Positions 9,552 through 57,133 are shown, numbered from the stretch's first letter. The stretch is 60,354 nucleotides of DNA from an uncultured Gammaproteobacteria bacterium (GCA_964641245.1 CAZXML010000006.1:1-60354); one strand, 5' to 3'. The notes: a model not told the origin generated them from the letters alone. Translations and numbers: made by a program.

Positions 9552-9613
9552 TTGTCATGCTGAACTTGTTTCAGCATCTTACGGTAGATCCTGAAATAAA
9601 TTCAGGATGACAA
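9552..9613. repeat. TTGTCAT...ATGACAA nested palindromic element, two-hairpin subtype.
   Basis: ttgtc-ATGCTGAA-cttgt-TTCAGCAT-...-ATCCTGAA-ataaa-TTCAGGAT-gacaa. It lies between the convergent ychF and methyltransferase genes. Confidence 0.85.
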
Positions 9614-9620
9614 TTGGCGT

Positions 9621-10796
9621 TTACCTTTTTTCATACCGCCAGATTTCTCTGGCTACCCGCTGGTTGGGGCGGGCATAGACAAGGCGTAATTGACCTTCAA
9701 AAAATGGTAGGGCTTTAAACCCTATTTTTTCAATTTCATTTTTACAATCAACCTCAATCCAATCACCGGCATATTTAAATCGGGGAATTATAAAAACAAC
9801 TTTGCCTTTAGTTTTTAGTACCCGGTGAAATTGTTGGAATGCCTGCAGATAAAGCTCTTTTAATTCTTTTGCCTGAACAAGCAAATCCTGCTTTGACTCC
9901 TGACCACGCAATGGTTTGCCGAGATATGGCTCGGTAACAACGGCATCTACGGAGCCGGACGGTAATTTCCCGGAAAGTTCCGCTATTTCACTTTTGAATA
10001 TTTTTATCTCCGGCAATTCCCGGTTGAATTTATTTGCCACCCATTCAATATTTAATTTTGTATCCGCCACCGCCTTTTCAGAGATATCGCTACCGATTAA
10101 ATTTTTATAGTTTAAGAGCAGAGCTTCGCTAATGATTGTGCCGGAACCGCAAAAAGGATCCAGTAGAATAGAGTTTAGCTGGGTTTGGGACAGGTTAATT
10201 AATATCATCGCCAGCTTGGGCGGTAACATGCCGCTTAAATCGTCGCGCCCCGGACGGCCAAAATCGCGGGCGCTAAATTGTTCAAAAGGCTGAACCGCGT
10301 CTGTTTTGGCGATGGAAAATAAATTGTCTTTTTTTTCTATTAAAAACTCCCGCCCCCGCGTCGTTAATCCGTTCATTGCCACGGCAACAGACGATAAGGC
10401 CGGTTCTTTGTTTTCCACGTATCTTATGGAGAGACCTTCATTTTTTAGCTTTTTCTTTATTTCTAAGCCGAGATCTTTTATTTCTTTTAAGGTTATTTCG
10501 GTATTGTAAAAACTAAGGCCAAAATTTATTTTTCCTTCCACCTTTTTAAGTTCCAGAATTATTTTTTCCTTCATTTCATCCGTGCTAACATTATCGGCAA
10601 TTTCCTCCGCAATTTTTATAGTGCCGCCCAACCGGCCGATTAAATTTTTGGCATCAAATTTAACATCGGTTTTTAAAATTGGCAAAGAGTAGTCGTAATT
10701 TTTTACACTTAAAACCGCGTCTATTTCAGCCGCGGCGATTAAAGATTCTCTGCCCAGTACAAACCAATGTCTAGGGCCTGGTGCTTGTGTTGGCAT
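9621..10796 (-). CDS. SAM-dependent RNA/DNA methyltransferase (UPF0020 / Trm11 / RlmL-like).
   Basis: DPFCGSGTIISEALLL SAM-binding motif and a VVTEPYLG catalytic motif (D/N-P-P-Y-like). Confidence 0.6.
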   Translation of the reverse strand: MPTQAPGPRHWFVLGRESLIAAAEIDAVLSVKNYDYSLPILKTDVKFDAKNLIGRLGGTIKIAEEIADNVSTDEMKEKIILELKKVEGKINFGLSFYNTEITLKEIKDLGLEIKKKLKNEGLSIRYVENKEPALSSVAVAMNGLTTRGREFLIEKKDNLFSIAKTDAVQPFEQFSARDFGRPGRDDLSGMLPPKLAMILINLSQTQLNSILLDPFCGSGTIISEALLLNYKNLIGSDISEKAVADTKLNIEWVANKFNRELPEIKIFKSEIAELSGKLPSGSVDAVVTEPYLGKPLRGQESKQDLLVQAKELKELYLQAFQQFHRVLKTKGKVVFIIPRFKYAGDWIEVDCKNEIEKIGFKALPFFEGQLRLVYARPNQRVAREIWRYEKR

Positions 10797-11103
10797 AAAC
10801 TGATGTGGTTGCGCCGTAATAAAATATATTCCTGACGTTCGGAGGGAACTCTTCCAGCTGCTTTTTGCGGCTGATTATTGCCCGCGCTTTTTCATAAGCC
10901 GGTAAATCCAGGTCATAAATACTCATATTTGACCGCAGGGCCACTATAGCATTCGCATTGGCGATTGTACTATAGATATTCTCATAAATAAAGTAATATG
11001 TAAACATGGCGCCGGATATGAGTAATCCAAGGATAATAATATTGATCAGACGCCAAAGGCCGTATCTCCCCTTATAAGAGATGATCATTTTATTGGTTAA
11101 CAT
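10771..11103 (-). CDS. Small single-pass membrane protein, last gene of the pil operon; function unknown.
   Basis: ORF with one TM segment (LINIIILGLLISGAMFTYYFIY). It overlaps the upstream pilO-like gene by 14 nt, suggesting coupling. Confidence 0.4.
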   Translation of the reverse strand: MLTNKMIISYKGRYGLWRLINIIILGLLISGAMFTYYFIYENIYSTIANANAIVALRSNMSIYDLDLPAYEKARAIISRKKQLEEFPPNVRNIFYYGATTSVYANTSTRP

Positions 11104-11632
11104 ATAATTCTATAGTAAGACTAAGGTTGGTGGTTGGTGTTGCTTCTCCATTTTTGGTAAAGACCGGCGTGGTTCGCAGTGAGTTTATGTAAATAAAATA
11201 ATTGGATGTTTCTAGTTCGGCGATGTGCATCAGGATATTCTCATAACTGCCGGCTAGGTTCATGGAAATGCTGGCGGTTTTGCTCCCACCCAGCTTATCC
11301 AGGTTGGAATTTAAAATTGTCTGCGTAATATGATGTTTGGCTGCTAAATCCTCCAAATATGTAATTAATTTAAGCTCATCCCCCGGTTTAAACAGAAAAG
11401 AATTAAAATCGGCGGAGGAATTTTTTATTTCTTCTAATTTTTTTCTGGTAACCCGTAAACGCAAAGATTGTTCATATTTTTGCTCCATGAATAACCGCAG
11501 CTTATAACTTTCATCTGAAGTTTTTTTAATATATGTTAAGGTTGGCACGAACACGCCCAGAATAATTATAAGAGACAGCAGTGTTAATGCGCCCGTTAGA
11601 ATAATTGTTTTTTTTGTTAAATCGAGAGTCAT
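11090..11632 (-). CDS. pilO: PilO-like type IV pilus assembly protein.
   Basis: N-terminal TM, then a coiled-coil region, then an alpha/beta domain. It sits directly after pilM-pilN. The call rests on position and topology only. Confidence 0.45.
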   Translation of the reverse strand: MTLDLTKKTIILTGALTLLSLIIILGVFVPTLTYIKKTSDESYKLRLFMEQKYEQSLRLRVTRKKLEEIKNSSADFNSFLFKPGDELKLITYLEDLAAKHHITQTILNSNLDKLGGSKTASISMNLAGSYENILMHIAELETSNYFIYINSLRTTPVFTKNGEATPTTNLSLTIELYVNQ

Positions 11633-11640
11633 AATGGCAT

Positions 11641-12246
11641 TTAATTATCATCTACGACCGGTTTTTGGCTGGATTTAGGGGCTTCTTTTTTTAATGAAAG
11701 GCTGACTAATTTCGCCTTAAATTCAAAATTAACATTCTCTTTTTGAAATAGCTGTGAAGCCGGCGTTTCTACCTGGGTAATCCAGGAAATTCCGTTTAGC
11801 ACATCCTGATAATGGATTAAGGCGGATCTGGTAAGGGCAGTTCCGGAAATTGACAATGTTTGCGCGTGGCGGTCTACCTGTACGGAACTAAGTTTTATAT
11901 CATTCGGCAAAGTGGCAATTAGTTCTTTTATTTTTGGCGTAACGGGCGCAAAGTTTTGGTTCGCTAAATTTATGTTGCGCACTAAATTATTAATAACCTT
12001 AACATCCTGATTGTAAGTATAATACTCGCGGTTAATTGCCGCCGCGCTGGCCGCCAAATTGGCAAAATCGTTTTCCAAAAAAAGCCAGCTCCAAATAAGG
12101 GTGGCCGCTAACACGGAGCCGATAATAATAACCAACTCCAAAATATCTTTTATCAGTAAAAAATTGATTATGTAGTCCAGGCGGCTCTTTTTTGCCGCCG
12201 GCAATAGATTGAAATTGATGTCCATCATACTTTTGTTTGTCATCAT
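11641..12246 (-). CDS. pilN: PilN-like fimbrial assembly protein.
   Basis: INFNLLPAAKK motif followed by a TM segment (PilN signature INLLP). The start is moved to the ATG pair at 12246/12243, because the 12261 start lies inside a repeat element. Confidence 0.6.
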   Translation of the reverse strand: MMTNKSMMDINFNLLPAAKKSRLDYIINFLLIKDILELVIIIGSVLAATLIWSWLFLENDFANLAASAAAINREYYTYNQDVKVINNLVRNINLANQNFAPVTPKIKELIATLPNDIKLSSVQVDRHAQTLSISGTALTRSALIHYQDVLNGISWITQVETPASQLFQKENVNFEFKAKLVSLSLKKEAPKSSQKPVVDDN

Positions 12247-12340
12247 GTTCACTGCGTTCAATGCAGGCTCTGAATGTAATGAAGGATCTCTGTCTCAATC
12301 GCTGAACGGACAGAGATTCTTCGCTTCACTCAGAATGACA
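12237..12340. repeat. TTGTCAT...ATGACA nested palindromic element, GATCTCTGTC/GACAGAGAT subtype, with a degenerate left arm.
   Basis: ctgaatgtaatgaaggatctctgtc ... gacagagattcttcgcttcactcagaatgaca. It lies between the pilM stop and the pilN start. Confidence 0.75.
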
Positions 12341-12353
12341 GTTTATATATTAT

Positions 12354-13460
12354 TTATTTTTCGTGGTTTTTGTTTTGTAACGGATTTTGAACGGCGCGGA
12401 GCGCTAAGCCGATCACACAGGCCAGCGGCAGGCTTTTATTTTTATCATATTCGTATAGTTTTTTATTCAGCAGGTTTTTCCACGGATGGCCGGCGTGAGC
12501 GGTAATTTTCAATTGCCTGGAAATAAAATTATCTATATTTTCCCAATTGGCCATGCCGCCGCAGATGGTAATGCGGCTGACAGTGTTGGTATTATTAAAA
12601 TGCTCTTTATAAAATAGCAGCGCGGTTTTAAGTTCGGCTATTAAACTTTCGGGAATGCCGGACACGGATGTGAGGTATTTGGGGTTATGAGCATCGTATT
12701 TAAGACCGTTTTTAATTTTTAATTCTTCAGCCGCGCCATGTTCAATTTTTAATCCTTGCGCAATAGCCGCAGTCACCAGTTCTCCTGAAAATCCTAATGT
12801 GGTGGTGAACTGAATGCTGTTGTTATCAAAGATAATTAAGGTAGAGCGGGTACCGCCTAAATCCAAAATTGCGCGCGCTTGCCCGGCGTAATCCTTATCC
12901 GCGGTAATCATAGACCGAGAAATAGCGGATGATTCCGTTTCTAAAACTATGGGGTTTAGGCCTACGCTTTCTATCAAATAAGTATAAGCATCGGTAACAA
13001 CCTTGGGAACGGCGGCAATTAAAACTTGTCTTTTTTTGGAAGTGGCAGTTGGCGTTACAACTTGCCAATCTAAATATGTGTCTTCCAACTCAAAAGGCAG
13101 ATGTTTTTTTGCCTGGTAGGTGATGTCTACCGATGTCAGTACGTTATCACTGCTTTCCACATCTATTAACTTTAAAAAAGTCTTTGGTTCCGGCAGGTTG
13201 GCAACAACCCAGGAAGAACGGATTGGTTTAAAACCGCCTCCATCTTTGCCTAATAAAACCAATAATTTCTTACGCACCAGTTCCGGCTGTTGAATATCCC
13301 CGTTAACAATAAGACCGGGTGGCAGAGAGGTTGAACGCAGTTCTTTAATATTATAATAGGGCCTTTCAAAGAAAGCGGAAGGCGAGAGTTGAACCAATTT
13401 TATGGATAAATCCCCGATATCCAAGCCGAACGCTCCGGCAAATGGGTTTCGTAGTAACAT
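12354..13460 (-). CDS. pilM: Type IV pilus assembly protein PilM (actin-like ATPase fold).
   Basis: FGLDIGDLSIKLVQL N-terminal phosphate-1-like motif, ILDLGGTRSTLII, and a position upstream of pilN. Confidence 0.75.
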   Translation of the reverse strand: MLLRNPFAGAFGLDIGDLSIKLVQLSPSAFFERPYYNIKELRSTSLPPGLIVNGDIQQPELVRKKLLVLLGKDGGGFKPIRSSWVVANLPEPKTFLKLIDVESSDNVLTSVDITYQAKKHLPFELEDTYLDWQVVTPTATSKKRQVLIAAVPKVVTDAYTYLIESVGLNPIVLETESSAISRSMITADKDYAGQARAILDLGGTRSTLIIFDNNSIQFTTTLGFSGELVTAAIAQGLKIEHGAAEELKIKNGLKYDAHNPKYLTSVSGIPESLIAELKTALLFYKEHFNNTNTVSRITICGGMANWENIDNFISRQLKITAHAGHPWKNLLNKKLYEYDKNKSLPLACVIGLALRAVQNPLQNKNHEK

Positions 13461-17809: not shown

Positions 17810-17863
17810 TTGTCATGCTGGATTTGGTCAGCATTCCATATCCCGACTAAGTCGGGATGACAA
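17810..17863. repeat. TTGTCAT...ATGACAA element, two-hairpin subtype, in the rpsF 5' UTR.
   Basis: ttgtc-ATGCTGG-atttg-GTCAGCAT ... ATCCCGAC-taa-GTCGGGAT-gacaa. Confidence 0.8.
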
Positions 17864-18357: not shown

Positions 18358-18425
18358 TTGTCATGCTGAACTTGATTCAGCATCTGGCGAATTTACAAAG
18401 ATCCTGAAACAAGTTCAGGATGACA
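18358..18425. repeat. TTGTCAT...ATGACA element, two-hairpin subtype, between rpsF and ssb.
   Basis: ttgtc-ATGCTGAA-cttga-TTCAGCAT ... ATCCTGAAC-aa-GTTCAGGAT-gaca. Confidence 0.85.
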
Positions 18426-19272: not shown

Positions 19273-20307
19273 ATGTCTAATTGGTCTGATTTAAAAAATA
19301 ATCCGCGGTTGAAAAATATCTATGATACGCGAATTAAAATTATTAAATTAATCCGCGATTTTTTTTGGTCTATGGATTTTATGGAAACAGATACGCCGGT
19401 TGCGGTAAAGTTGGCCAGCCAGGAGCCATATCTTAATCCGTTGTTCGTTACCATCCACGATCCGAACAGTCATGCTGAAAATTTTTATTTACGCACCTCG
19501 CCGGAGTTTGCTTTAAAAAAATTACTGGCGGTTGGTTACGAAAAGATTTTTGAGATCGGCAAATGCTTCCGTGATTACGAAAGTTTTGGCGGTAATCATA
19601 ATACCGAGTTCACTATGCTGGAATGGTATCGGGCGCCCGGAAAATATCAGGATATTATGGATGATACCGAGAACTTGTTTAAATATATTAGTCGAAATTT
19701 AGAAATAAAGAAATTAAGAAATAGGCAGGTCGAAATTTTAATTGATTGCAAGTGGGACCGCTTAAGCATGAAAGAGGTTTGGCAAAAATATATTGGTGTT
19801 AATCTTGACGATTATTTAGAAATTGATAGGTTAAAACAATTGGCCATTGATAAAAAATACGTGATAGATGATAATTACGAATACGAAGATATTTTTTATA
19901 AAATTTTCTTAAATGAAATTGAGCCTAATTTGGGAAACGAAACTCCGATTTTTGTTTATGATTACCCTGCCTGCATGACCTCTCTGTCCCGCTTATGCGA
20001 ACACGATAACAGATATGCGGAAAGATTTGAGTTGTATATTGGAGGTTTGGAGTTGGCCAATGCTTTTGGCGAATTAACCGATGCCAAAGTGCAGGAAAAA
20101 CAATTGCAAAAAGACATGGAGCTACGAAAGAAACTCGGCAAGGAAACTTGGCCAGTAGACAAGGATTTTATCGCCGCTTTACAGTCCGGAATCCCAACGG
20201 CAGGGGGTATTGCCTTGGGAGTAGATCGTATGGTAGTATTATTTACCGAAGCGAAGGATATAAATGAGGTAATCTTTGGAGCGGTAAAGGACCAGATTGA
20301 AAATTAG
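19273..20307 (+). CDS. epmA: EF-P lysine beta-lysyltransferase EpmA (GenX/PoxA; class II LysRS catalytic-core paralog).
   Basis: Class II aaRS motifs are present: FRDYESFGGNHNTEFTMLEWY, ELANAFGEL and GGIALGVDRMV. There is no anticodon-binding domain. The gene sits immediately upstream of efp. Confidence 0.75.
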   Translation: MSNWSDLKNNPRLKNIYDTRIKIIKLIRDFFWSMDFMETDTPVAVKLASQEPYLNPLFVTIHDPNSHAENFYLRTSPEFALKKLLAVGYEKIFEIGKCFRDYESFGGNHNTEFTMLEWYRAPGKYQDIMDDTENLFKYISRNLEIKKLRNRQVEILIDCKWDRLSMKEVWQKYIGVNLDDYLEIDRLKQLAIDKKYVIDDNYEYEDIFYKIFLNEIEPNLGNETPIFVYDYPACMTSLSRLCEHDNRYAERFELYIGGLELANAFGELTDAKVQEKQLQKDMELRKKLGKETWPVDKDFIAALQSGIPTAGGIALGVDRMVVLFTEAKDINEVIFGAVKDQIEN

Positions 20308-20326: not shown

Positions 20327-20418
20327 GTATTACGTATCAAGTATTAAGTATTAAGCCCGACCGATAAAGCTTTTATTGGTTATCAAATACATAATACTTA
20401 ATACATAATACCTAATAC
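20327..20418. repeat. AT-rich word-stutter hairpin (GTATTAAG words).
   Basis: The left arm is gtattacgtatcaagtattaagtattaag. The right arm is cataatacttaatacataatacctaatac. Related words occur at 28348-28380 and 45421-45507. Confidence 0.75.
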
Positions 20419-23494: not shown

Positions 23495-23554
23495 TTGTCA
23501 TCCTGAACTTGTTTCAGCATCTTCCGTAGATCCTGAAACAAGTTCAGGATGACA
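23495..23554. repeat. TTGTCAT...ATGACA element, two-hairpin subtype.
   Basis: ttgtc-ATCCTGAA-cttgt-TTCAGCAT ... ATCCTGAAAC-aa-GTTCAGGAT-gaca. Confidence 0.85.
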
Positions 23555-25408: not shown

Positions 25409-25479
25409 GGACTACAGACTACGGACTACCGACTACCGACTTTTGTCAGGTGTGGTCAGTAGTCTGTCGTCAGTAGTCC
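25409..25479. repeat. Word-stutter hairpin built from GACTAC heptamers, lying between two tRNAs.
   Basis: ggactac-agactac-ggactac-cgactac-cgac ... gtcagtagtctgtcgtcagtagtcc. Confidence 0.75.
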
Positions 25480-25485
25480 GCATAT

Positions 25486-27033: not shown

Positions 27034-27244
27034 TTGTCATTTCGACACCGCGAATGTCATCCCGAGCGAGCCGTAGCGACGAGGGATCTATTCCGATTAT
27101 ACTAAGGTATTTTTCACACACGCTCGGAAATTAAAACAAGTTTTAACTTCTCTCACTTTGTATGAAAAATAAAAAATTATAATCACAATATTATATTAAT
27201 AGGTATAGATCCCTCGTCGGCTAAGACCTCGCTCGGGATGACAA
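27034..27244. mobile_element. Expanded, MITE-like member of the TGTCAT...ATGACA family: ~37-nt terminal inverted repeats enclosing a 115-nt AT-rich core.
   Basis: The left arm tgtcatcccgagcgagccgtagcgacgagggatcta (27055-27090) pairs with the right arm tagatccctcgtcggctaagacctcgctcgggatgaca (27206-27243). An extra truncated terminus, ttgtcatttcgac, sits at 27034. Confidence 0.6.
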
Positions 27245-28347: not shown

Positions 28348-28380
28348 GAAGTATTATGTATTAAGTATTATGTATTAAGC
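28348..28380. repeat. Tandem GTATTATGTATTAA words (half-site of the AT-rich word family).
   Basis: agaagtattatgtattaagtattatgtattaagc. Confidence 0.6.
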
Positions 28381-28401
28381 GTTGGCATTGTGAGTGTCTA
28401 A

Positions 28402-28484
28402 TTGTCATCCTGAGCATAGCGAAGGATCTCTGTCTCAACTGATCGACGACGGACAGAGATTATTCATTGCATTCAGAATGACAA
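28402..28484. repeat. TTGTCAT...ATGACAA element, GATCTCTGTC/GACAGAGAT subtype.
   Basis: ttgtcatcctgagcatagcgaaggatctctgtc-tcaactgatcgacgacg-gacagagattattcattgcattcagaatgacaaa. Confidence 0.85.
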
Positions 28485-31897: not shown

Positions 31898-31977
31898 TTG
31901 TCATCCTGAACAAGGTGAAGGATCCCTGTCTGTTTGGTAATTAAGACAGAGATTCTTCGTTTCACTCAGAATGACAA
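31898..31977. repeat. TTGTCAT...ATGACAA element, CTGTC/GACAG subtype; it overlaps the ruvB stop codon.
   Basis: ttgtcatcctgaacaaggtgaaggatccctgtc-tgtttggtaattaa-gacagagattcttcgtttcactcagaatgacaa. Confidence 0.85.
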
Positions 31978-37049: not shown

Positions 37050-40000
37050 ATGCAAAACGCCTTAGCCACTAAAACATTCGTCGTAGATAATGATTTTAAG
37101 TACTCCACGGAAGGGCTTCGTTTTGCCCGGCTTTTTACCAAAGATGGCGTTAGCCCGTTTGATATGTTTTCATACGAACTGCGTCCTTCTTTAATCCGCG
37201 AACCGAGCGGCCAAATTGTCTTTGAAATGAAGGAAGTAGAGGTGCCAAAAACCTGGACTCAAGTGGCCACCGATATTTTAGCGCAAAAATACTTCCGCAA
37301 GGCCGGCGTGCCTCAATATAATGCCGACGGCACCCCGGAGTTGAATCAAGACGGCAGTCCCGTTTTAGGGCCGGAGCATAGTGTAAAGCAGGTGGCTCAC
37401 CGTTTGGCTGGCACGTGGCGTTACTGGGGAGAAAAATACGGATATTTTGCTAGCGCCCAGGATGCGCAAGTTTTTTACGATGAACTGGTATTCATGTTAA
37501 TTTCCCAACGCGTTGCGCCAAACTCACCGCAATGGTTTACCACCGGTTTGTATTGGGCTTATGGAATTAACGGTCCGGCGCAAGGCCATTATTATCCGGA
37601 TCCAGATAATAATGGAGCCGTCACGCGCTCACCGGATGCTTATTCCAGAAACCAGCCCCACGCTTGTTTTATTCAATCAATTAAAGATGATTTGGTAAAC
37701 GATGGTGGTATTATGGATTTGTGGATACGCGAAGCCAGATTATTTAAATACGGCAGTGGTACCGGCACTAACTTTTCCACTTTGCGCGGTACCGGAGAAA
37801 AACTTTCCGGAGGCGGCACTTCTTCCGGCTTAATGAGCTTCTTAAAAATAGGCGACCGCGCTGCCGGCGCTATAAAATCCGGAGGCACCACCCGCCGCGC
37901 CGCGAAAATGGTTGTTTTAAACATAGATCATCCGGACATAGAAGAATTTATTGAATGGAAAGTAAAAGAGGAAAAAAAGGTAGCCGCTCTTATCGCCGCC
38001 GGTTATGATTCGGCCTACGAAGGCGAAGCCTATCAAACTGTTTCCGGACAAAACTCCAACAATTCCGTACGCGTTACCCATGATTTTTTGGAAACCGTAG
38101 AAAACAATAAAGACTGGAATTTAATCGGACGCAAAAATGGAGACATCATAAAAACCCTGCCCGCCCGCCAGCTTTGGGACAAGATTGCCAGCGCCGCTTG
38201 GGCTTGCGCCGATCCAGGAGTTCAATTTGATACTAACATAAATGAATGGCACACTTGTTTATCATCCGGACGCATCAACGCTTCCAACCCCTGTAGTGAA
38301 TACATGTTTTTAGATGACACCGCTTGCAATTTGGCCTCCATAAATTTGGGTCATTATTATGATGTTGATACTTTAAGTTTTGATGTGGATGATTTTAAGT
38401 ACACCACCAGAATGTGGACCGTAGTTTTGGAAATCAGTATTTTAATGGCGCAATTTCCCGGTCCGGAAATAGCCCAGAACAGTTATCTTTTCCGCACCTT
38501 GGGTTTGGGCTATGCAAATATTGGCAGTGTACTCATGACTGCCGGTATTCCCTATGATTCTCCGGAGGCCATGGGTTTTGCCGGCACCATTACCGCTTTA
38601 ATGACCGCCGAGTCTTATGTTGCTTCGGCTGAAATGGCCAAATTTATGGGCCCATTTGCCGAATATAATAAGAACCGCGAAGATATGTTGCGGGTAATAC
38701 GCAATCACCGCCGGGCCGCTTTTAATGTCCGTGAAGATGAATACGAAAATCTGTCGGTAAAACCAATGGGAATAAATCCGGAATTTGTGCCTGCCTATTT
38801 GTTGGTCGCCGCCCGTGAAAGTTGGAATAAAGCTCTGGAAATGGGAGAGCAATACGGTTATCGTAACGCGCAAACAACTTTGCTCGCTCCTACCGGTACC
38901 ATTGGTTTGTTAATGGACTGCGCCACCACCGGTGTGGAACCGGATTTCGCTTTGGTAAAGTTTAAAAAATTGGCCGGTGGCGGTTACTTCAAAATTGTAA
39001 ACGAATCCGTACCTGTCGCATTACGTGTTATGGGTTATACGGAAATACAAATAAACGACATTATAAATTATTTACGCGGTCATGCTACATTAAAAAACGC
39101 TCCACACATCAATCATCAAACTCTAAAAGAGAAAGGTTTTACCGATGAAGAATTGGCCAAGGTGGAGAAATCATTATCCAAAATTTTTGAATTGGCCTTT
39201 GCTTTTAATGTCTGGACATTGGGTGAGGATTGTTTAAAGCGTTTGGGTTTCACTAGCGAGCAGTATAATGACAACAACTTTAATGTATTATCTGTTTTAG
39301 GATTTAATGCCGAGCAAATTTTGGCAGCCAATGAATATGTTTGCGGAGCCATGACCATCGAAGGCGCGCCGCATTTGCGCAAAGAACATTACGCCGTGTT
39401 TGATACGGCCAATAAAAACGGCAAAAAAGGTTTGCGCTACATCCATTATTTAGGACACATCCGCATGATGGCCGCGGTGCAACCATTTTTATCCGGCGCT
39501 ATTTCCAAAACCATCAACATGCCAAACGAAGCAACGCTAGACGATGTGAAGACAGCTTATGTTGCTTCCTGGAAATTAGGGCTCAAGGCCATGGCTTTGT
39601 ATCGCGACGGTTGTAAGTTGTCTCAACCCTTATCCGCCAAATCGGACAAAAAGAAAGGGGATAAAAAAGATGAGAATGAAATAGAAAAACAAGAAATTAA
39701 GAAATTAGGAAATGAAGAAATTGGGAAATTAAAAAGTGATGAAATTGAGAAATTGGGAAATAAAGAAATTGAAGTTGTGGTAAAGCATAATGCCGACGGT
39801 TCCATTTCCGGAACCAGAATTTATACGCACAATGAACAACACAAATTGCCGTATAAACGCAGTGGTGTAACCATCAAAACAAAAGTTTCCGGTCAGACTA
39901 TATTCTTACGGACCGGTGAATATCCGGATGGTAAATTAGGAGAAATATTTATTGACATGCACAAAGAAGGCGCCGCTTTCCGAAGCATGTTAAATTTATT

Positions 40001-40500: not shown

Positions 40501-40594
40501 TTATCCAGATATCCAGATAATCCAGATTTACGGATATTGAACCGTTAGTTTGGAGTATCATCTGTAAATCTGGATTATCCGTAAATCCGGATAA
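40501..40594. repeat. Word-stutter hairpin built from ATCCAGAT / TTACGGAT words, between nrdJ and the adenosyltransferase gene.
   Basis: The left arm is ttatccagatatccagataatccagatttacggat. The right arm is atctgtaaatctggattatccgtaaatccggataa. Several pairing registers are possible. Confidence 0.8.
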
Positions 40595-40598: not shown

Positions 40599-41180
40599 AT
40601 GAAAATATATACAAAAACCGGTGACAAAGGAGAGACGGGTCTGTTGGGCGGTGTTAGGGTTGATAAGAATTGCATAGAAATGCAACTCATTGGCGAAACC
40701 GACGAATTAAACGCCGCGCTGGGTGTGGTTGTGGCTTCACTCAACTGTCATCCTGAACTTGTTTCAGGATCTTTGGTTCAATTTCTCCAAAACATCCAGC
40801 GCGATTTATTTAAAATCGGGGCCGAGTTCGCTTCTCTGCAAACACCTCTGTCGGAACGCGTAGAAAAAATAAACGAAAGCAGAGTTATAGAAATGGAAAA
40901 AATGATTGATGAATTTTGGTCGGAACTTTCGGAACTTAAAAATTTTATTCTTCCGGGTGGTAGCCAGGCCGGCGCGCATCTTCATCTGGCGCGGACTATT
41001 TGCCGGCGGTTAGAGCGGGAACTGGTAGCGTTTGGCAAAAGTCAAATGTCAAATGTCAAAAGTCCAAAGTCCAATCTACGTCCCGAACTTTATATTTATT
41101 TAAACCGTCTTAGTGATTTTTTATTTGCCGCCGCGCGGTGGGTGAATTTTAAAGCGGGGGAGGAGGAGATAAAAGTATAA
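40599..41180 (+). CDS. pduO: PduO-type ATP:cob(I)alamin adenosyltransferase.
   Basis: MKIYTKTGDKGETGL N-terminus, DELNAALG, and IQRDLFKIGAE. Confidence 0.85.
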   Translation: MKIYTKTGDKGETGLLGGVRVDKNCIEMQLIGETDELNAALGVVVASLNCHPELVSGSLVQFLQNIQRDLFKIGAEFASLQTPLSERVEKINESRVIEMEKMIDEFWSELSELKNFILPGGSQAGAHLHLARTICRRLERELVAFGKSQMSNVKSPKSNLRPELYIYLNRLSDFLFAAARWVNFKAGEEEIKV

Positions 41181-45407: not shown

Positions 45408-45420
45408 GTTGAGCGCAGTG

Positions 45421-45507
45421 AAGTATTAAGTATCAAGTATTATGGGGTGAACGGCCGCGTTTGTCTGCTTAATACTTAATACATAATACTTGATACATAA
45501 TAATACT
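45421..45507. repeat. AT-rich word-stutter hairpin (GTATTAAG / GTATCAAG words).
   Basis: aagtattaagtatcaagtattatg ... cttaatacttaatacataatacttgatacataataatact. Confidence 0.75.
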
Positions 45508-46917
45508 ATGCAAATAGAAAAACTTAAAAAATTAAAAAAACTATTTTCTCGCGACAGGCGCGGCAATATCCTGCTGTTCGTGATGGTTTTTGGCACTATT
45601 TGTCTTTCTATTATTATTGTGGGAGTGGCCGGATATGCTATTTCTGAAAACAGGGCGTCCTTAAAAAAACATAACAGAGAAATGGCCTTTGAGATTGCCG
45701 ACGCCGGCGCGAATTATTATCGTTGGCATTTAGCTCACGACAAAAGCGACTATTACGACGGCAACGGAACCAGCACGCCCGGTCCGTATATCCATGATTA
45801 TTACGACAAAGACGGTAACGCCATTGGACAATATTCTTTAACGATCACGCCTCCGCCGGTCGGATCATCCGTAGTCACAATAGAATCAACCGGATGGTTG
45901 AATATCCAGCCGGGTAGCCGGCGGGTGATAAAAATCAGAGTTGCTTTTCCGTCTGTTACCGACTACGCCTTCTTAACAAATAGCGACGCCTGGATCGGCA
46001 ATGAAGAAGAAGTGCACGGCCGTTTTCACGCCAATGGGGGCATTCGTTTTGACGGGACTAATGACGCTTCGGTGGCCAGCGCCGTTTTGACTTATTACTG
46101 CCAGCCAATACATGGCGGCGGATGTAATAATACATCCAAGCCGGGCATTTGGGGTGATGGCGGACCAACGGAGTTATGGAGTTTCCCTGTTCCCGCAAAA
46201 GATTTTACAGAAATCACCGCGAGTCTGGCGCAAATGAAAACAGCCGCAGAGTCGGACGGCGTTTATTTATCTTCTTCAGGTGAACAGGGGTGGGCGATAA
46301 CTTTTACGGGTGATGGCAATTTTGCCGCCCAGAAAGTTATTACCACGGATTGTTATGATACCAAGGACATTGGCGAGAAAAATTGGGTTGTGCGCTGTAC
46401 AGATGCGTCAACATACGGGCCGACCACTACTTATTCAATTCCGGCGAACGGTTTTATTTATGTAGACGATATGGTTTGGGTTAGCGGGGTAGTTAAAGGA
46501 AAAGCGACCATTGGCGTATCAAACGGTAAATCAATTACAATTGGCGGCAACATAACTTATGTTGCAAAAGACGGGACTGATGTTTTAGGGTTAATCGCCG
46601 AACAAAATATTTTGGTCGTTAAAAACTCTCCGGATGTTCTGGAAGTTGACGCGGCTTTAATCGCCCAAAATGGAGCGGCCAAAAGATATGATTATTCAGG
46701 CGGCGGCGGAGATGACAGAAAAACCAGTATTACAATATATGGATCCATAGCTTCAAATGGTATATGGACATGGAGTTGGATAAACCTGGGCGGAAATTTA
46801 GTGTCCGGGTATAGAGATACATTTGCGACCTACGACGTAAATTTAACCTACGGTCCGCCGCCCGGATTTCCAATTAGTTCACAATATAATTTGATTAGTT
46901 GGGAAGAGGTGAATTAG
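45508..46917 (+). CDS. PilX-like pilus-associated protein with an N-terminal membrane anchor.
   Basis: The start is moved to MQIEKLKK (ATG 45508). RRGNILLFVMVFGTICLSIIIVGVAGYA is a hydrophobic anchor. The gene follows two prepilin genes. Confidence 0.5.
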   Translation: MQIEKLKKLKKLFSRDRRGNILLFVMVFGTICLSIIIVGVAGYAISENRASLKKHNREMAFEIADAGANYYRWHLAHDKSDYYDGNGTSTPGPYIHDYYDKDGNAIGQYSLTITPPPVGSSVVTIESTGWLNIQPGSRRVIKIRVAFPSVTDYAFLTNSDAWIGNEEEVHGRFHANGGIRFDGTNDASVASAVLTYYCQPIHGGGCNNTSKPGIWGDGGPTELWSFPVPAKDFTEITASLAQMKTAAESDGVYLSSSGEQGWAITFTGDGNFAAQKVITTDCYDTKDIGEKNWVVRCTDASTYGPTTTYSIPANGFIYVDDMVWVSGVVKGKATIGVSNGKSITIGGNITYVAKDGTDVLGLIAEQNILVVKNSPDVLEVDAALIAQNGAAKRYDYSGGGGDDRKTSITIYGSIASNGIWTWSWINLGGNLVSGYRDTFATYDVNLTYGPPPGFPISSQYNLISWEEVN

Positions 46918-46960: not shown

Positions 46961-47088
46961 TTGTCATTGCGAGCAAAGCGAAGCAATCCCACAGTCCGTT
47001 AGTGCCAACAATGGGATTGTCCCGATAGTGAATCGAGGATCCTCGACTGCAGTCGGGACCGCGTCGCTACGGCTCCTCGCAATGACAA
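46961..47088. repeat. TTGTCAT...ATGACAA element, TTGCGAG / AATCCCA subtype, with an extra TCCCGA...TCGGGA hairpin.
   Basis: ttgtcattgcgag...gcaatccca-...-tgggattg-tcccgatagtgaatcgaggatcctcgactgcagtcggga-...ctcgcaatgacaa. Confidence 0.85.
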
Positions 47089-49427: not shown

Positions 49428-49507
49428 TTGTCATTCTGAGCATAGCGAAGAATCTCTGTCTGTTCGGCGATTGAGACAGAGATCCTTCATTACATTCAGG
49501 ATGACAA
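49428..49507. repeat. TTGTCAT...ATGACAA element, ATCTCTGTC/GACAGAGAT subtype.
   Basis: ttgtcattctgagcatagcgaagaatctctgtc-tgttcggcgattga-gacagagatccttcattacattcaggatgacaa. Confidence 0.9.
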
Positions 49508-51665: not shown

Positions 51666-51677
51666 TTATTTTTCCTT

Positions 51678-51706
51678 GCAGGGGGTTCGCGCGCGCAACC
51701 CCCTGC
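51678..51706 (+). terminator. GC-rich hairpin after paralog 4.
   Basis: GCAGGGGGTT-cgcgcgcgc-AACCCCCTGC. A second hairpin, CCCCGC-ttgg-GCGGGG, lies at ~51733-51748. No clear T-run follows either. Confidence 0.4.
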
Positions 51707-51777
51707 CCAGGAAAGCTCGGCACCTGTAATTCCCCGCTTGGGCGGGGTAGGGGCGGGTTGGTAGGTGTCCATTAGTC

Positions 51778-51847
51778 TGTCATTCTGAGCAGAGCGAAGA
51801 ATCTCTTAAACAATGAGAGGGATCCTTCATTTCATTCAGGATGACAA
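51778..51847. repeat. TGTCAT...ATGACAA element, short variant.
   Basis: tgtcattctgagcagagcgaagaatctct-taaacaa-tgagagggatccttcatttcattcaggatgacaa. Confidence 0.85.
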
Positions 51848-53215: not shown

Positions 53216-53302
53216 TCTCTCCCCTTTTAGGGGAGAGACAGAGAGAGGGGTATGCGGTGAACGACAATACCCCCACCCTGCCCTCCCCCTAAAAGGGGGA
53301 GG
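53216..53302. repeat. Cluster of three G/C-homopolymer-rich hairpins between paralogs 7 and 8.
   Basis: TCTCTCCCC-tttta-GGGGAGAGA (53216-53238), GGGGTAT...ATACCCC (53247-53273), and CCTCCCCC-taaaa-GGGGGAGG (53282-53302). Confidence 0.7.
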
Positions 53303-53815: not shown

Positions 53816-54940
53816 TTATATTTTTGGCGTAAAAATATTTTTCAATATAATCTCGCCAGCATTTGGGTGAGATTTTTTTTGAATGAGAGTTGGATTTGAA
53901 AGTAGGGTTTGGATTTTTTTGGCCAGATCATCGCTTGAATTCGCTCTTAAGCCGTAATGATTTTTTTCCAGATACGTCGCGTTGTAATCTTCCTGTCCTG
54001 GGATAGGATTTATAATTATAATAGGCTTTTGCAAAAACATAACCTCGGAAACGGTTAGTCCGCCCGCCTTGCCAACTATTACATCCGCAATCCGCATCCA
54101 TTCGTCTATATTATCGGCATTTTTTAAAATAGTAAAATTCCTTTGTCCGGCATCCTTTATATCTTCCAAATCCTTAAAAAGTTCTTGATTAGTATTGCCT
54201 GAAATAGCCACCACATTCACATTCTTATTTTGAGAAAAAATTGCCGGTACCGCGTCTTTGGCGCTGATTTTACCGCTGGAGATGGGCATGATTAAAATTG
54301 TTGGCCAGTCATTATTTATATTCAGTTTCCTTTTTAATTCAGCAGTATTTTTGACGGCAAAAAAACTGGCGTGAAGAGGCAAACCGCTGGCGATGCTTTT
54401 TATGCCTTTTTTTTCCAGTTCAATTTTTGTTTCTTCGCTGGCGACAAAAAAATTGCGTACACAAGGGGCCAGCCAGATTTGATGAGCGTGATAATCGGTA
54501 ATTACCGTGTCCAGAGGTATAGAAAAATTTTTAGGGAATAAGAGTTGAGGAGAAAACTGGGTGGAAACTATATAATCCGGCCGGAATTCCTCTATTTTTT
54601 TTAAAAATTTCCTCGCGCCTAATTTAAAAAACGGTCTAAGACCTATCAATATTTTCTGTGTGAAAGGTTTGTCGGTTAAGTGGTAGATAAATTTATAAGT
54701 TCTGGGGATGTGGTTGATGAATGTGTTGTAGGATGAAACCGAAAAAGCGCGGGCAAACCCGGAAAGATAATCCGCCAAATCTATATGAAGCACCTGAACA
54801 TCGGGGTATAGTTTTTGAGAAGCTAAACGCAATGCCTCGGCCGCGCGGAAATGTCCGGAGCCGGTGGAGCACGAAACAATAAGAAGTTTTTTCCCGCCAA
54901 AGCGGGATCCCGCCTCATGGCGGTGATAAATGTTGGACAT
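53816..54940 (-). CDS. GT28-family glycosyltransferase (MGDG-synthase / diacylglycerol glycosyltransferase-like).
   Basis: KKLLIVSCSTGSGHFRAAEAL N-terminal motif and C-terminal GKAGGLTVSEVMFLQKPIIIINPIPGQE. The start is moved to ATG 54940, because the 54985 start overlaps tRNA-His. Confidence 0.65.
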   Translation of the reverse strand: MSNIYHRHEAGSRFGGKKLLIVSCSTGSGHFRAAEALRLASQKLYPDVQVLHIDLADYLSGFARAFSVSSYNTFINHIPRTYKFIYHLTDKPFTQKILIGLRPFFKLGARKFLKKIEEFRPDYIVSTQFSPQLLFPKNFSIPLDTVITDYHAHQIWLAPCVRNFFVASEETKIELEKKGIKSIASGLPLHASFFAVKNTAELKRKLNINNDWPTILIMPISSGKISAKDAVPAIFSQNKNVNVVAISGNTNQELFKDLEDIKDAGQRNFTILKNADNIDEWMRIADVIVGKAGGLTVSEVMFLQKPIIIINPIPGQEDYNATYLEKNHYGLRANSSDDLAKKIQTLLSNPTLIQKKSHPNAGEIILKNIFTPKI

Positions 54941-54943
54941 ATT

Positions 54944-55019
54944 TGGGGTGCCTAATGGGAGTCGAACCCATGTTGCGAGATCCACAATCTCACGTAATAA
55001 CCGTTATACCATAGGCACC
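54944..55019 (-). tRNA. tRNA-His (anticodon GTG) with encoded G-1 and CCA.
   Basis: Minus strand: G-GTGCCTA...TGAGA-TTGTGGA-TCTCG...ATGGG-TTCGACT-CCCAT-TAGGCAC-C-CCA. Confidence 0.85.
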
Positions 55020-55036
55020 ATATCGACGACGTCCTG

Positions 55037-55108
55037 TGTTCCCAGTAGGAATCGAACCTACACATCCAGCTTAGAAGGCTAGTGTCCTATCCATTAAACG
55101 ATGGGAAC
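55037..55108 (-). tRNA. tRNA-Arg (anticodon TCT).
   Basis: Minus strand: acceptor GTTCCCA/TGGGAAC. Anticodon arm is CTAGC-CTTCTAA-GCTGG. T arm is GTAGG-TTCGATT-CCTAC. Discriminator is A. Confidence 0.85.
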
Positions 55109-55357
55109 ATTGCTATTTTTTGAATTAATCAATCGTTCAATTGCCTTTCTGCTTTTCCATTTTTTAATTTGGTATTCTCTACTTTGTGCATCGGAGCGAT
55201 TTTGATATGGCTCTGTATATACTAACATACACGGCAATTTACTTTTCGTCGAGAAAACCCTGCCTCGGTCATGGTCGGCTTTCCGGCTAACCAGGTCGCT
55301 CGTGCTTCCAATGTAGTATGAACCATCGCTTAACTTGATGATGTATACGTGGTACAT
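55094..55357 (-). CDS. Small GIY-YIG nuclease (UPF0213/YhbQ-like). Its last 5 codons and stop codon lie inside tRNA-Arg.
   Basis: MYHVYIIKLSDGSYYIGSTSDLVSRKADH...REYQIKKW carries the GIY-(10)-YIG motif, the Arg, and the Glu. The start is moved to ATG 55357, because the upstream part of the track ORF reads through a palindromic repeat. Confidence 0.7.
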   Translation of the reverse strand: MYHVYIIKLSDGSYYIGSTSDLVSRKADHDRGRVFSTKSKLPCMLVYTEPYQNRSDAQSREYQIKKWKSRKAIERLINSKNSNVPIV

Positions 55358-55373
55358 ATGGAAGAGTAGTGTC

Positions 55374-55436
55374 TCCCGACTTTGCCTTTGGCGGCAAAGT
55401 CGCGGATCCTCGATTTTGCTCGAAGCAAAATCGGGA
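55374..55436. repeat. TCCCGA...TCGGGA nested palindromic element, related to the inner hairpins of 17810 and 46961.
   Basis: tcccgaC-TTTGCC-tttggc-GGCAAAG-tcgcggatcctcga-TTTTGCT-cgaa-GCAAAA-tcggga. Confidence 0.75.
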
Positions 55437-55458
55437 CTATCCATTAAACGATGGAGAC
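55437..55458 (-). pseudogene. Orphan duplicate of the 5' acceptor/D-arm segment of tRNA-Arg(TCT).
   Basis: ctatccattaaacgatggagac matches 55087-55108 (ctatccattaaacgatgggaac) at 20 of 22 positions. Confidence 0.7.
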
Positions 55459-55547
55459 CCGAGACTTTTGACTCGTTCGCTATCATATACTATTTTTACA
55501 GATTAATCAAGGTGTGGTATCATATGGGGTAGTTTATCATAATTTGT

Positions 55548-55895
55548 ATGTATAGAAGAATTTTTATATTTCTGGTTTTTACTCTAATAATTCTTGGTCC
55601 TGCTCGTCCGGCATTGGCTCAATTTGGCTTAGATAAAAGCGGCCCAACGGCGGGTTATGGAGAGACTAATATTTATTCCACCATTAGCACTGTCATCAGC
55701 GTTGTACTATCCGTTGCCGGTTTGGTTTTTTTGGCTATTATGTTTTATGCCGGCCTGCGCTGGATGACTGCCCGCGGCAATGAAGAATTTATCTCCAAGG
55801 CAAAAGGAGCTATGTTTGGAGCGCTGATCGGGTTCATTTTAGTCACAATTTCTTATGGCGCTTCCGCCTTTATTTTCAGCAAGTTGATTAATTAA
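55548..55895 (+). CDS. VirB2/TrbC-like protein, paralog 9.
   Basis: The signal peptide ends in ALAQ. The core is YAGLRWMTARGNEEFISKAKGAMFGALIGFILVTISY. Confidence 0.65.
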   Translation: MYRRIFIFLVFTLIILGPARPALAQFGLDKSGPTAGYGETNIYSTISTVISVVLSVAGLVFLAIMFYAGLRWMTARGNEEFISKAKGAMFGALIGFILVTISYGASAFIFSKLIN

Positions 55896-55896
55896 T

Positions 55897-55998
55897 TTGT
55901 CATTGCGAGGAGGTCTTGGCGACCGACGAAGCAATCCCAAAGTACTGGTTGGTACTAACAATGGGATTGCCACGTCGCTACGGCTCCTCGCAATGACA
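55897..55998. repeat. TTGTCAT...ATGACA element, TTGCGAG / AATCCCA subtype.
   Basis: ttgtcattgcgagg...gaagcaatccca-aagtactggttggtactaaca-atgggattgc...cctcgcaatgaca. Confidence 0.85.
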
Positions 55999-56005
55999 CG
56001 CCAAC

Positions 56006-56034
56006 TTGACATTTTTGGGGTTTTGGGCTATAGT
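56006..56034 (+). promoter_or_regulatory. Sigma70-type promoter of rpsO.
   Basis: TTGACA (56006-56011), a 17-nt spacer, then TATAGT (56029-56034). An 84-nt leader follows before ATG 56119. Confidence 0.6.
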
Positions 56035-56118
56035 TATCTTGTTATTAAACACATCCGCCTAGGCGGAGCGGACTGCCTGGAAACATACTCCTGGGTCAGC
56101 TCGTTAAACATATTTCGT

Positions 56119-56487
56119 ATGTTAGAGAAAAAGAAAAAGCAGGCGATTATCAAAAAGTTCCAGACACACGCCGGCGACACCGGTTCAAACGAGGTCCAGA
56201 TTGCCATCCTGGCAGCGGAAATAGACGAACTGGCCGAGCACTTAAAAAGCCATCACAAAGATCACTCATCCCGCCGCGGTTTACTGCGCAAGGTAAGCAG
56301 CCGCCGGAACTTAATGCGTTATTTAAAGAAAGAAGATCCGGAAAGTTACGAACAATTAGTCAAAAAATTAAAAATTAAACCAGCTAAACTCATCACTAAA
56401 CCGGACGGTTCCACCGCAGAAATAGAAGAAGAATTGGCTGAAGAAATAGAATTAATCGGACAAAAACATGATTCCGCAAATCAATAA
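56119..56487 (+). CDS. rpsO: 30S ribosomal protein S15 with a ~35-aa C-terminal extension.
   Basis: MLEKKKKQAIIKKFQTHAGDTGSNEVQIAILAAEIDELAEHLKSHHKDHSSRRGLLRKVSSRRNLMRYL. The start is moved from 55897 (inside the repeat) to ATG 56119. Confidence 0.9.
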   Translation: MLEKKKKQAIIKKFQTHAGDTGSNEVQIAILAAEIDELAEHLKSHHKDHSSRRGLLRKVSSRRNLMRYLKKEDPESYEQLVKKLKIKPAKLITKPDGSTAEIEEELAEEIELIGQKHDSANQ

Positions 56488-57043
56488 AAAAAGAAACACA
56501 CTTAAACACCCCGACCAAAGAGTAGGGGTGTTTATTGATGTGCAAAATATGTACTACAGCGCCAAAAATTTATTTGGCGCCAAAGTAAATTTTGGCAACA
56601 TCGTCAAAGAAGCCACCGCCGGCCGAAAACTTATCCGCGCTATCGCTTATGTGGTCAGCACCGAAGGCAAAGAAGAACAGCCGTTTTTTGACGCCTTATA
56701 TAATGTAGGCATAGAAACCAAAGACAAACCATTGCAAATATTCTTGGGCGGAGAAAAAAAAGCCGACTGGGATGTTGGTTTGGCCGTAGACGCCATCCGT
56801 TTTTCTCCCAGTTTAGATGCTATAATTTTGGTAAGCGGCGATGGCGACTATATTCCTTTGGTAGATTACTTAAGAAGCCAGGGCAAGCAGGTAGAAGTTA
56901 TGGCTTTTGGCGGAACGACCTCCGGAAAGTTAATAGACGCGTCCGATGATTTTATAGATTTAAGCCAGGACAAAGCCAAGTTTTTGATAGCAGACAAAAG
57001 ATACACCGCCAAGAGACCAGGGTATCCACCGAAGAAAGTATAA
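56468..57043 (+). CDS. NYN-domain (LabA/DUF88-like) putative ribonuclease.
   Basis: VGVFIDVQNMYYS ... ILVSGDGDYIPLVDYLRSQGKQVEVMAF, the acidic NYN catalytic pattern. It overlaps the rpsO 3' end by 20 nt. Confidence 0.7.
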   Translation: MIPQINKKRNTLKHPDQRVGVFIDVQNMYYSAKNLFGAKVNFGNIVKEATAGRKLIRAIAYVVSTEGKEEQPFFDALYNVGIETKDKPLQIFLGGEKKADWDVGLAVDAIRFSPSLDAIILVSGDGDYIPLVDYLRSQGKQVEVMAFGGTTSGKLIDASDDFIDLSQDKAKFLIADKRYTAKRPGYPPKKV

Positions 57044-57053
57044 CAAACAATCA

Positions 57054-57133
57054 TTGTCATTCTGAGCAAAGCGAAGAATCTCTGTCCGTTCGGCGATTGA
57101 GACAGAGATCCTTCATTGCATTCAGGATGACAA
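57054..57133. repeat. TTGTCAT...ATGACAA element, ATCTCTGTC/GACAGAGAT subtype. Its loop and right arm are nearly identical to the copy at 49428.
   Basis: ttgtcattctgagcaaagcgaagaatctctgtc-cgttcggcgattga-gacagagatccttcattgcattcaggatgacaa. Confidence 0.9.

Follow-up and report, generated by a model that had tools for sequence, protein, structure and literature searches.

Inverted doublets of TGTC-tagged hairpin units in a Magasanikbacteria-like genome: a mobile repeat family and probable single-stranded DNA targets of Ssn-type nucleases

The stretch of DNA analysed here, CAZXML010000006.1:1-60354 of assembly GCA_964641245.1 (60,354 nucleotides, hereafter the window, deposited under the name of an uncultured Gammaproteobacteria bacterium), carries, as judged from Pfam scans, an rpsF-ssb-rpsR operon, a type IV pilus operon, eight T4SS_pilin paralogues in tandem and the genes for a class II ribonucleotide reductase and PNPase. 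Dispersed among these genes is a family of palindromic elements bounded by TTGTCAT and ATGACAA, which we describe below as pairs of small, oriented hairpin units that probably serve as DNA targets of a nuclease family known from Neisseria. In protein comparison the homologues of ribosomal protein S6 belong to Parcubacteria/Magasanikbacteria metagenome-assembled genomes (MAGs), and the host is read as a bacterium of the Candidate Phyla Radiation (CPR), Magasanikbacteria-like; a JGI metagenome contig (3300010391, 34.6 kb) is 99.99% identical to the window over the 14.7 kb fetched.

The existence of the family is not in doubt. The heptamer TTGTCAT occurs 28 times in the window against 8.8 occurrences expected, a count reached in none of 100 shuffles, and a strict definition of the unit, [T/C]GTCAT-NNN-(7-33 nt)-N'N'N'-AT, yields 24 units where 200 shuffles gave 1.7, with a maximum of 6. 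Every interval listed in the first-pass annotation is a palindrome predicted by folding to form a long hairpin of -21 to -83 kcal/mol, and an independent repeat finder found the same families again (its D4, D6, D7, D8 and D10), such that a dispersed palindrome family stands at these coordinates (Table 1). The accompanying description of nested palindromes has, on the other hand, to be modified. When all TGTCAT heads are listed with their downstream sequence, each arm proves to be a complete small hairpin of its own, so that the basic unit is the arm and not the doublet; the 27 arms of the window comprise 13 inverted doublets, with the tags pointing outward, and one single unit, and it is this outward-tagged inverted pairing which gives the appearance of nested palindromes.

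The units share a common layout. An unpaired TGTC tag is followed by a stem opening with A-T and T-A, by three variable pairs and by a core of GA/GA or GAA/TTC around a small loop, often as a GC-GNA-GC minihairpin, after which come the complementary strand of the stem and, directly 3' of it, a C. All 27 arms open with TGTC and then AT; GTC precedes the palindrome in 27/27 units, and the 3' C is present in 25/27. A core containing GGATC had been thought common to all copies; what is shared is the ATC after the stem, which may read GGATC, GCATC, GAATC or CAATC. Within this layout the type A stem is ATGCTGAA/TTCAGCAT, of 8 bp, with GCTGAA/CCTGAA stems and a 5-nt loop; type B doublets combine GAGC-ANA-GCGAAG with GAAT-GNA-ATGAAG; the type C unit is TGCGAG..GCAATCCCA and the type D unit CCCGAGCGAG..GAGGGATC. 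Types B and C have 9 stem positions with tandem G.A/A.G in mid-stem and 3-nt loops (GNA/ANA), long inner hairpins occur in type D and in part of the type C units, and the 3' ends are CCCA in type C but CT or CTCTGTC in types A and B. The variants from which four subtypes had been proposed are present, yet the subtypes are more aptly regarded as combinations of hairpin units, each independent of the others and each with a covarying stem.

The Pfam scans also bear out the gene context originally proposed. Doublets lie in the pilM/pilN spacer, in the 5' untranslated region (UTR) of rpsF, in the rpsF/ssb spacer, upstream of rpsO (an S15 domain is found in open reading frame (ORF) 55897-56487) and between an NYN-domain gene and pnp. 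The genes flanking the 13 doublets are unidirectional in 10 cases, convergent in 2 and divergent in 1; most doublets lie 0-45 nt from an upstream stop codon, and one provides the stop codon of ruvB. The single unit at 40746-40771 is identical to the units at 18425(-) and 23554(-), and the adenosyltransferase gene that contains it encodes a protein spanned over its whole length by the Pfam domain, with a net gain of two loop residues relative to YvqK (PDB 1rty). The density, about one doublet per 3.7 kb, is indeed high; it does not, however, exceed the range of repetitive extragenic palindromes (REPs) as first supposed, since genomes rich in such repeats reach these loads, with hundreds to thousands of units per genome (PMC3733652) and, in some species, more than 300 elements of the Ssn-related motif (SRM) type discussed below (PMC11893778).

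Table 1. Positions of the hairpin units and of the GIY-YIG locus in the window
Feature	Coordinates	Strand	Location and remarks
Type A doublet	9552-9613		Made up of units 9553-9578 (+) and 9587-9612 (-); flanked by the stop codons of the convergent YchF (9551) and methyltransferase (9621) genes
Type B doublet with nested small hairpin insertion near one end	12237-12340		Between pilM and pilN, both on the - strand
Degenerate doublet (GCTGG../CCCGAC.. stems)	17810-17863		rpsF 5' UTR, between conserved promoter-like TTGACT..TATGATAAG and start codon 17875
Type A doublet	18358-18425		In the rpsF/ssb spacer, 3 nt past the rpsF stop
Type A doublet, near-perfect 31-nt arms	23495-23554		Divergent spacer, upstream of a cupredoxin gene (-)
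Type D doublet (TGTCATCCCGAGCGAG..CGACGAGGGATC) with nested insertion	27034-27244		About 100 nt of AT-rich DNA between the arms; convergent Nramp/AI-2E spacer; additional partial head at 27034-27054
Type B doublet (REP1 GAGC..GCGAAG +, REP2 GAAT..ATGAAT -)	28402-28484		Between AI-2E and polysaccharide-synthesis genes
Type B doublet	31898-31977		Overlaps the last ruvB codons and provides the stop codon
Single type A unit	40746-40771	+	Inside a PduO-type cobalamin adenosyltransferase gene; encodes CHPELVSGS
Type C doublet (TGTCATTGCGAG..GCAATCCCA)	46961-47088		Nested GTCCCGA..TCGAGGATCCTCGA..TCGGGAC palindrome at ~47019-47059
Type B doublet	49428-49507		Between a solute-binding protein gene and the first pilin paralogue
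Type B doublet, shorter spacer	51778-51847		Between two pilin paralogues
Type C doublet, long inner hairpins	55897-55998		1 nt past a pilin gene stop, upstream of rpsO
Type B doublet	57054-57133		Between an NYN-domain gene and pnp
Tail-to-tail double hairpin (CGATTTTGC../CGACTTTGCC.., joined at GGATCC)	55374-55436	-	Directly upstream of the GIY-YIG ORF
GIY-YIG nuclease ORF, single-domain, 86 aa, Ssn-like	55097-55357	-	Pfam PF01541, E = 8.5e-14

The units are not confined to the window. With a pattern in which tag and core were fixed and the stem left as N (TGTCATNNNGAGCNNNGCGAN{3,4}ATC, pairing not required), matches were obtained in more than 120 viral contigs of IMG/VR and in more than 119 stretches of GTDB genomes from many phyla, these including Nitrospirota, Acidobacteriota, Chloroflexota, Bacteroidota, Desulfobacterota, Firmicutes, Planctomycetota, Proteobacteria, Saccharibacteria, Gracilibacteria and Uhrbacteria. 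Among the matches listed, the variable triplets were fully complementary in 42 of 49 unique viral and 39 of 63 unique genome sequences, where about one would be expected by chance, and 7-11 different triplet types were represented. The unit hairpin thus shows strong stem covariation. Type A units occur in at least 120 metagenome contigs and 34 viral contigs, near-copies of type B doublets are found on cyanobacterial plasmids, and in GC-rich loci the tag reads CGTC; the hairpin family is not lineage-specific. A blastn search with one doublet against phages gave no match.

Several of the loci fetched in these scans (L numbers) merit separate mention. In the IMG/VR loci L003-L122 the units lie in the intergenic spacers of phage structural modules, overall in either orientation and often 10-40 nt upstream of a ribosome-binding site. 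In a Bacteroidaceae MAG (L143:3394-4253) a 105-bp unit containing one TGTCATGTTGAGCGAAGCGAAACATC hairpin is repeated 8.2 times in tandem, and on the Planktothrix agardhii plasmids L442 and L242 unit doublets are annotated within the coding sequences of MmeI and PglX.

Comparison with four syntenic loci of relatives (L243, L244, L245 and L246; S6 identity 78-85%) indicates how recently the elements have moved. In L243 and L244 the gene order is kept over 17-20 kb and there is not a single unit: the YchF and methyltransferase genes overlap, the pilM-pilN spacer is 11-14 nt long, and the rpsF-ssb spacer of 40-46 nt has no element. The site at 9552 is empty in L243, L244 and L246, while in L245 the same flanks enclose a type B doublet; the 28402-28484 spacer has other unit types in L246 and none in L243/L244. 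The 17810 doublet has an ortholog in L245 that differs by one compensatory pair (CCCGAC/GTCGGG versus CCCGAT/ATCGGG), and is absent in L243/L244. Within the window the type B doublets at 49428 and 57054 are 94% identical over 88 nt, spacer included. The presence/absence polymorphism in orthologous spacers which the first-pass annotation had proposed to look for is therefore clear, and no target-site duplication is visible where filled and empty orthologous sites are compared. Such filled and empty sites imply that the elements are recent insertions with quick turnover, sometimes at the same site; in short, this is a family of mobile hairpin repeats gained and lost between related genomes. A different palindromic family, of ATCCAGATAATCC / GGATTACGCGGATT-like units, is found at L245:10465-10510 and at 40501-40594 of the window, and it fills the rpsF-ssb spacer of L245 at the place where the window has a TGTCAT doublet.

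One question then is whether such elements act as RNA or as DNA. The most serious alternative regards them as cis-acting RNA elements, whether 3'-end stabilisers, terminators independent of U-tracts, or RNase III/E sites tuning operons and 5' UTRs. The location of 10/13 doublets between co-oriented genes, mostly just past the upstream stop, is what such a role would predict, as are the very stable hairpins predicted for all elements and the rpsF 5' UTR copy common to the window and L245 with its compensatory pair; side effects of this kind are allowed for in the REP literature (PMC3733652). However, the Rfam 15 covariance models returned only tRNAs from the window at the gathering threshold and, at E <= 1, only chance matches to miRNA-precursor hairpins, so that the proposed check for a known RNA family gave no match for the elements at either threshold. 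The noted absence of U-tracts holds, the 3' flanks in the direction of transcription being A-rich or mixed. By contrast, the suggestion that arm mismatches are mostly transitions preserving G:U pairing does not: overall we count 80 transitions versus 88 transversions between arms, and on one strand the transitions divide into 37 G:T and 43 A:C, the latter being as frequent as the pairs tolerated in RNA. Transitions do dominate in the type B doublets, again evenly split between G:T and A:C on one strand, and the differences between type B arms are compensatory within each arm (GAGC..GCGA versus GAAT..ATGA), which argues for selection on the unit hairpin rather than on the long hairpin. Nor is there a strand bias, for across about 400 fetched loci with crude ORF calls single units between co-oriented ORFs are sense in 64 cases and antisense in 59, and unit contexts in the same set are convergent in 45 cases versus divergent in 22. 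Orthologous spacers of close relatives are empty though the operons are kept, one copy lies within coding sequence, units recur in unrelated genes, phyla and phages, and the SsnA protein of Neisseria meningitidis, which binds hairpins of this type, does not bind the RNA form (PMC11893778). All this points to a DNA-level element rather than to a strand-specific role in RNA, and we consider a primary RNA function improbable, at perhaps the level of a long shot worth keeping in mind. Accordingly, among the candidate roles originally listed, protein-binding sites and non-autonomous mobile elements agree with the evidence, while RNase III/E sites and mRNA stabilisers find no support in it.

Two published families resemble the units closely. 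The first is the superfamily of CGTC-tagged REPs, which comprises CGTC-1 to CGTC-4 and includes dRS3 of Neisseria and RPE-4/RPE-6 of Rickettsia (Di Nocera 2013, PMC3733652). Common to these and to the elements of the window are the CGTC tag, often TGTC, the stem of 8-9 bp opening with A-T and T-A, in type C also a short 3' tail, the arrangement mostly as inverted dimers and often as heterodimers, the absence of an associated transposase, and the location between unidirectional or convergent genes near their 3' ends, with occasional intragenic copies as in Rickettsia (PMC3733652); correspondingly, 26/27 units of the window form the 13 inverted dimers and one unit is intragenic. The families differ in part in the loop, of 4-5 nt in CGTC-REPs, whereas it has 5 nt in type A, 3 nt in types B and C and some long inner hairpins besides, although CGTC families with other loops also exist (PMC3733652); perhaps in the tail, whose published consensus is CCA as against CCCA in type C and CT or CTCTGTC in types A and B; and in range, for that survey reported 5 phyla, mostly alpha-proteobacteria, whereas here a CPR host, many more phyla and viral contigs are involved.

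The second family links these hairpins to an enzyme. Hairpins termed NTS in Neisseria and SRM in general flank ssnA, which encodes a 94-aa GIY-YIG protein (cd10448) that binds the hairpin only as single-stranded DNA (ssDNA) and cuts it a few nt upstream; this biochemistry was shown for the Neisseria and Wolbachia homologues, double-stranded DNA and RNA being inactive (Chenal 2025, PMC11893778). In Neisseria the enzyme restricts incoming ssDNA, and SsnA lowers transformation by NTS-bearing DNA; the NTS-ssnA-NTS layout was likened to an insertion sequence (IS), mobility being left as a hypothesis, and the study neither cites the 2013 classification nor mentions CPR/Patescibacteria (PMC11893778). 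With the units of the window this system has in common the oriented hairpin, the 5' (C/T)GTCAT tag, the palindrome opening with AT and the C directly after it, and it is characterised by hundreds of intergenic copies per genome. The GTC and C flanking the palindrome, which we find in 27/27 and 25/27 units, are the positions critical for cutting and binding by Ssn. The differences are that the stems of the window are AT-rich (CTGAA/TTCAG) or have tandem GA mismatches around a GC-GNA-GC minihairpin, and that the host is a CPR bacterium.

The same partner emerged independently in the present material. Clustering of the ORFs around type A loci led to a family of GIY-YIG proteins of ~95 aa, while around the other unit sets it gave only phage structural or random housekeeping genes. 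In all 19 contexts examined in other genomes, of which 5 were selected by the unit (L262, L311, L400, L163 and L260), 6 were metagenome loci selected by the protein and 8 (8/8) were isolates, inverted units flank this single-domain gene, typically with unit(+) 20-90 nt upstream and unit(-) 0-60 nt downstream, tags outward. The isolates, drawn from a tblastn search of PLSDB, are cyanobacteria and alpha-, beta- and gamma-proteobacteria (Planktothrix, Azospirillum lipoferum, Sinorhizobium meliloti, Neisseria gonorrhoeae, Novosphingobium aromaticivorans, Sphingobium, Rhizobium and Aeromonas caviae). The flanking units are of type A in L262/L412, L311, L400/L422, L402, L432, L436 and L440, type B-like in L163 (Gracilibacteria) and L442 (Planktothrix), and NTS-like in L443-L449. 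The closest solved structures of the protein family are the UPF0213 proteins 1zg2 and 1ywl. Only one locus was found when viral contigs were searched with the GIY-YIG alignment, and tblastn against GenBank phages gave no match. Because the Ssn/SRM pairing was published in 2025, the gene association seen here is not new but an independent rediscovery. Literature queries using the unit sequence strings themselves had given no relevant match.

Some further observations concern these ssn-type genes. In L402:1880-2400 a 20-nt direct duplication, TTTCAGGACCTCGACGGTTT, surrounds the ssn gene and one unit, as though a copy of the cassette had landed in the loop of an existing unit, and in L442 the gene with its flanking doublets has restriction-modification genes on one side and DISARM genes on the other. 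The TTAC..GGTA spacer of the 9552 doublet resembles the inner ends of one ssn cassette, a match judged to be chance because 67 type A doublets have unrelated spacers.

Taken together, we conclude that the elements are hairpin units of the CGTC/TGTC-tagged REP superfamily, alias Ssn-related motifs (NTS/SRM), which most likely work as ssDNA targets of Ssn, a reading to which we assign a probability of roughly 75%. On the proposed mechanism the unit would fold when the DNA becomes single-stranded, as in replication, repair or DNA uptake; a small Ssn-family nuclease with a single GIY-YIG domain would bind the folded unit in an orientation-specific manner and cut the single strand a few nt 5' of the tag; and the nuclease, or the repair of its cuts, might be what spreads the units. 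Any effects on neighbouring mRNAs would then be a by-product. An Ssn-type enzyme of the organism itself presumably recognises these unit variants.

Several observations weigh against this conclusion. The 60-kb window contains no canonical ssn gene flanked by TGTCAT units, and its only GIY-YIG ORF (55097-55357) carries different hairpins and sits at a tRNA gene. The published SRM search sequence, HGTCWYN(0-2)YYVSBRHN(0-5)WNVSBRGN(0-2)RNCYNB, has no match in the window and rejects the consensus units of types A, B and C, and membership thus rests on tag, stem and tail together with the gene association elsewhere. This sequence does match proteobacterial units and control sequences of the NTS type; it was built from 29 genomes of 4 phyla (PMC11893778), and we accordingly take the mismatch as a failure of the string rather than of the anatomy; the AT-rich and GA-mismatch variants would have escaped the published survey. 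The spacers of type A doublets are highly variable (4-39 nt), a poor fit to copying of whole doublets, and the rpsF 5' UTR copy, being kept in two lineages with a compensatory change, could have a local function.

The GIY-YIG ORF of the window itself deserves a closer description. Its protein aligns end to end with the profile of Ssn homologues (47.9 bits) and has homologues annotated in Patescibacteria, and the 3' end of the ORF abuts tRNA-Arg (55036-55108). The layout, at 55036-55454 (-) in the window, recurs at L245:1285-1700 with tRNA-Ala and at L450:1400-1820 with tRNA-Arg: the gene lies directly 5' of the tRNA, a duplicate of the first 17-24 nt of the tRNA stands on the gene's other flank, and between this duplicate and the gene there is a conserved double hairpin, with a homologous one upstream of the L450 gene. 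This has the appearance of a cassette which integrates into tRNA genes and rebuilds their 5' part, and the window locus seems to be a tRNA-linked cassette in its own right, belonging to a CPR-specific Ssn-like clade. The hairpin at 55374-55436 had been entered as a relative of the main family; related it is, but it forms a distinct tail-to-tail double hairpin that lacks the GTCAT tag, and the 46961-47088 doublet has another copy nested within it (~47019-47059).

Since inverted pairs of REPs forming a long hairpin also define the REPINs (PMC3116915), it is necessary to ask whether the doublets are true REPINs, moved by an IS200/IS605-like Y1 HUH enzyme of the REP-associated tyrosine transposase (RAYT) type. 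The two systems share inverted, non-autonomous doublets with hairpins as well as a lone small gene of nuclease type that has these repeats on either side, and in L295 one IS200-like tnpA is situated between inverted units. REPINs differ, however, in the GTAG tag and in the Y1 HUH transposase fold of their enzyme (PMC3116915), and the window has no Y1 transposase. A RAYT motif regex found none; phmmer searches in which E. coli RayT and an approximate version of IS608 TnpA served as queries brought up two RAYTs and one IS200. The RAYT as partner enzyme was rejected, since the two RAYT genes (L056, L084) are flanked by a different repeat, GTGGCGCAGGCTTCAGCCTGTGG, and the L295 element has its own subterminal hairpins and appears to be inserted between the units; in the 2013 survey, likewise, no tyrosine transposase was flanked by CGTC repeats (PMC3733652). 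Mobilisation by RAYTs is thus highly improbable. As to the loci themselves, the RAYT-like Y1 genes at L056:1167-1817 and L084:1407-2165 have their own REPIN-like GTGGCGCAGGCTTCAGCCTGTGG with TGTCAT doublets on the same contigs, which means that two hairpin-repeat systems coexist there. The tnpA at L295:383-1076, with end hairpins CCACCTGC..GCAGGTGG, lies between TGTCAT/CGTCAT units and may have inserted into a doublet or beside one. Classical miniature inverted-repeat transposable elements, that is deletion derivatives of a DDE-transposase IS with TTGTCAT/ATGACAA as terminal inverted repeats and with target-site duplications, would share the terminal repeats, small size and presence/absence polymorphism, but are the least credible origin of all, for filled and empty sites differ without such a duplication, each arm is a complete hairpin also found singly, and ORF clustering around several hundred units gave no recurrent DDE transposase.

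The window holds other repeats as well. A second palindromic family of GTATTAAGTATCAAGTATTA-like units is intergenic at 20327-20418, 28358-28384 and 45415-45511. A CCCCTTTTAGGGGAG.. palindrome (53221-53298) lies inside a pilin-paralogue ORF, and the cctctcccttgatgggagagg hairpins found beside TGTCAT units upstream of genes in phage contigs L004, L012, L062, L066 and L079 resemble it. There are GACTAC(N)GACTAC repeats between tRNA-Gly and tRNA-Met (25410-25480), a GC-rich palindrome after a pilin gene (51671-51714) and runs of GAAATTNR with an 8-nt period (D5; 39677-39772 and 19694-19733), the long run being within the ribonucleotide reductase ORF. The ORF of a surface protein (89-5260, 1723 aa) has internal repeats of ~1.27 kb with 83-85% identity within window positions 1-2995.

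What is new with respect to the published families is the CPR host, the unit variants beyond the published pattern, the comparative evidence that elements have recently been gained and lost, and the Ssn-like cassette linked to a tRNA gene. We suggest tentatively, and with rather more doubt than confidence, that the AT-rich (CTGAA..TTCAG) units and those with GA mismatches or GC-GNA-GC constitute SRM classes outside that pattern, in which case Ssn/SRM pairs would reach CPR/Patescibacteria, many other phyla and phages; that the gain and loss among close CPR relatives would be the first comparative evidence of current mobility, presumably by way of Ssn-type nucleases; and that the tRNA-linked Ssn-like clade (55097-55454; L245, L450) would represent a further variant. 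In practical terms, the published SRM search string under-detects the family, and recognising the units averts spurious ORF calls, several ATGACA.. 'starts' in the window being unit ends. The ssDNA tools envisaged by Chenal 2025 could also gain new hairpin/nuclease specificities from the unit variants. CPR bacteria combine tiny genomes with a lifestyle thought to depend on type IV pili and DNA uptake, and in the window hairpins of the type targeted by an ssDNA nuclease are dense around pilus, pilin and ribosomal-protein genes. If the units are indeed Ssn targets, a system restricting ssDNA would be placed in organisms where the uptake of foreign DNA may be central.

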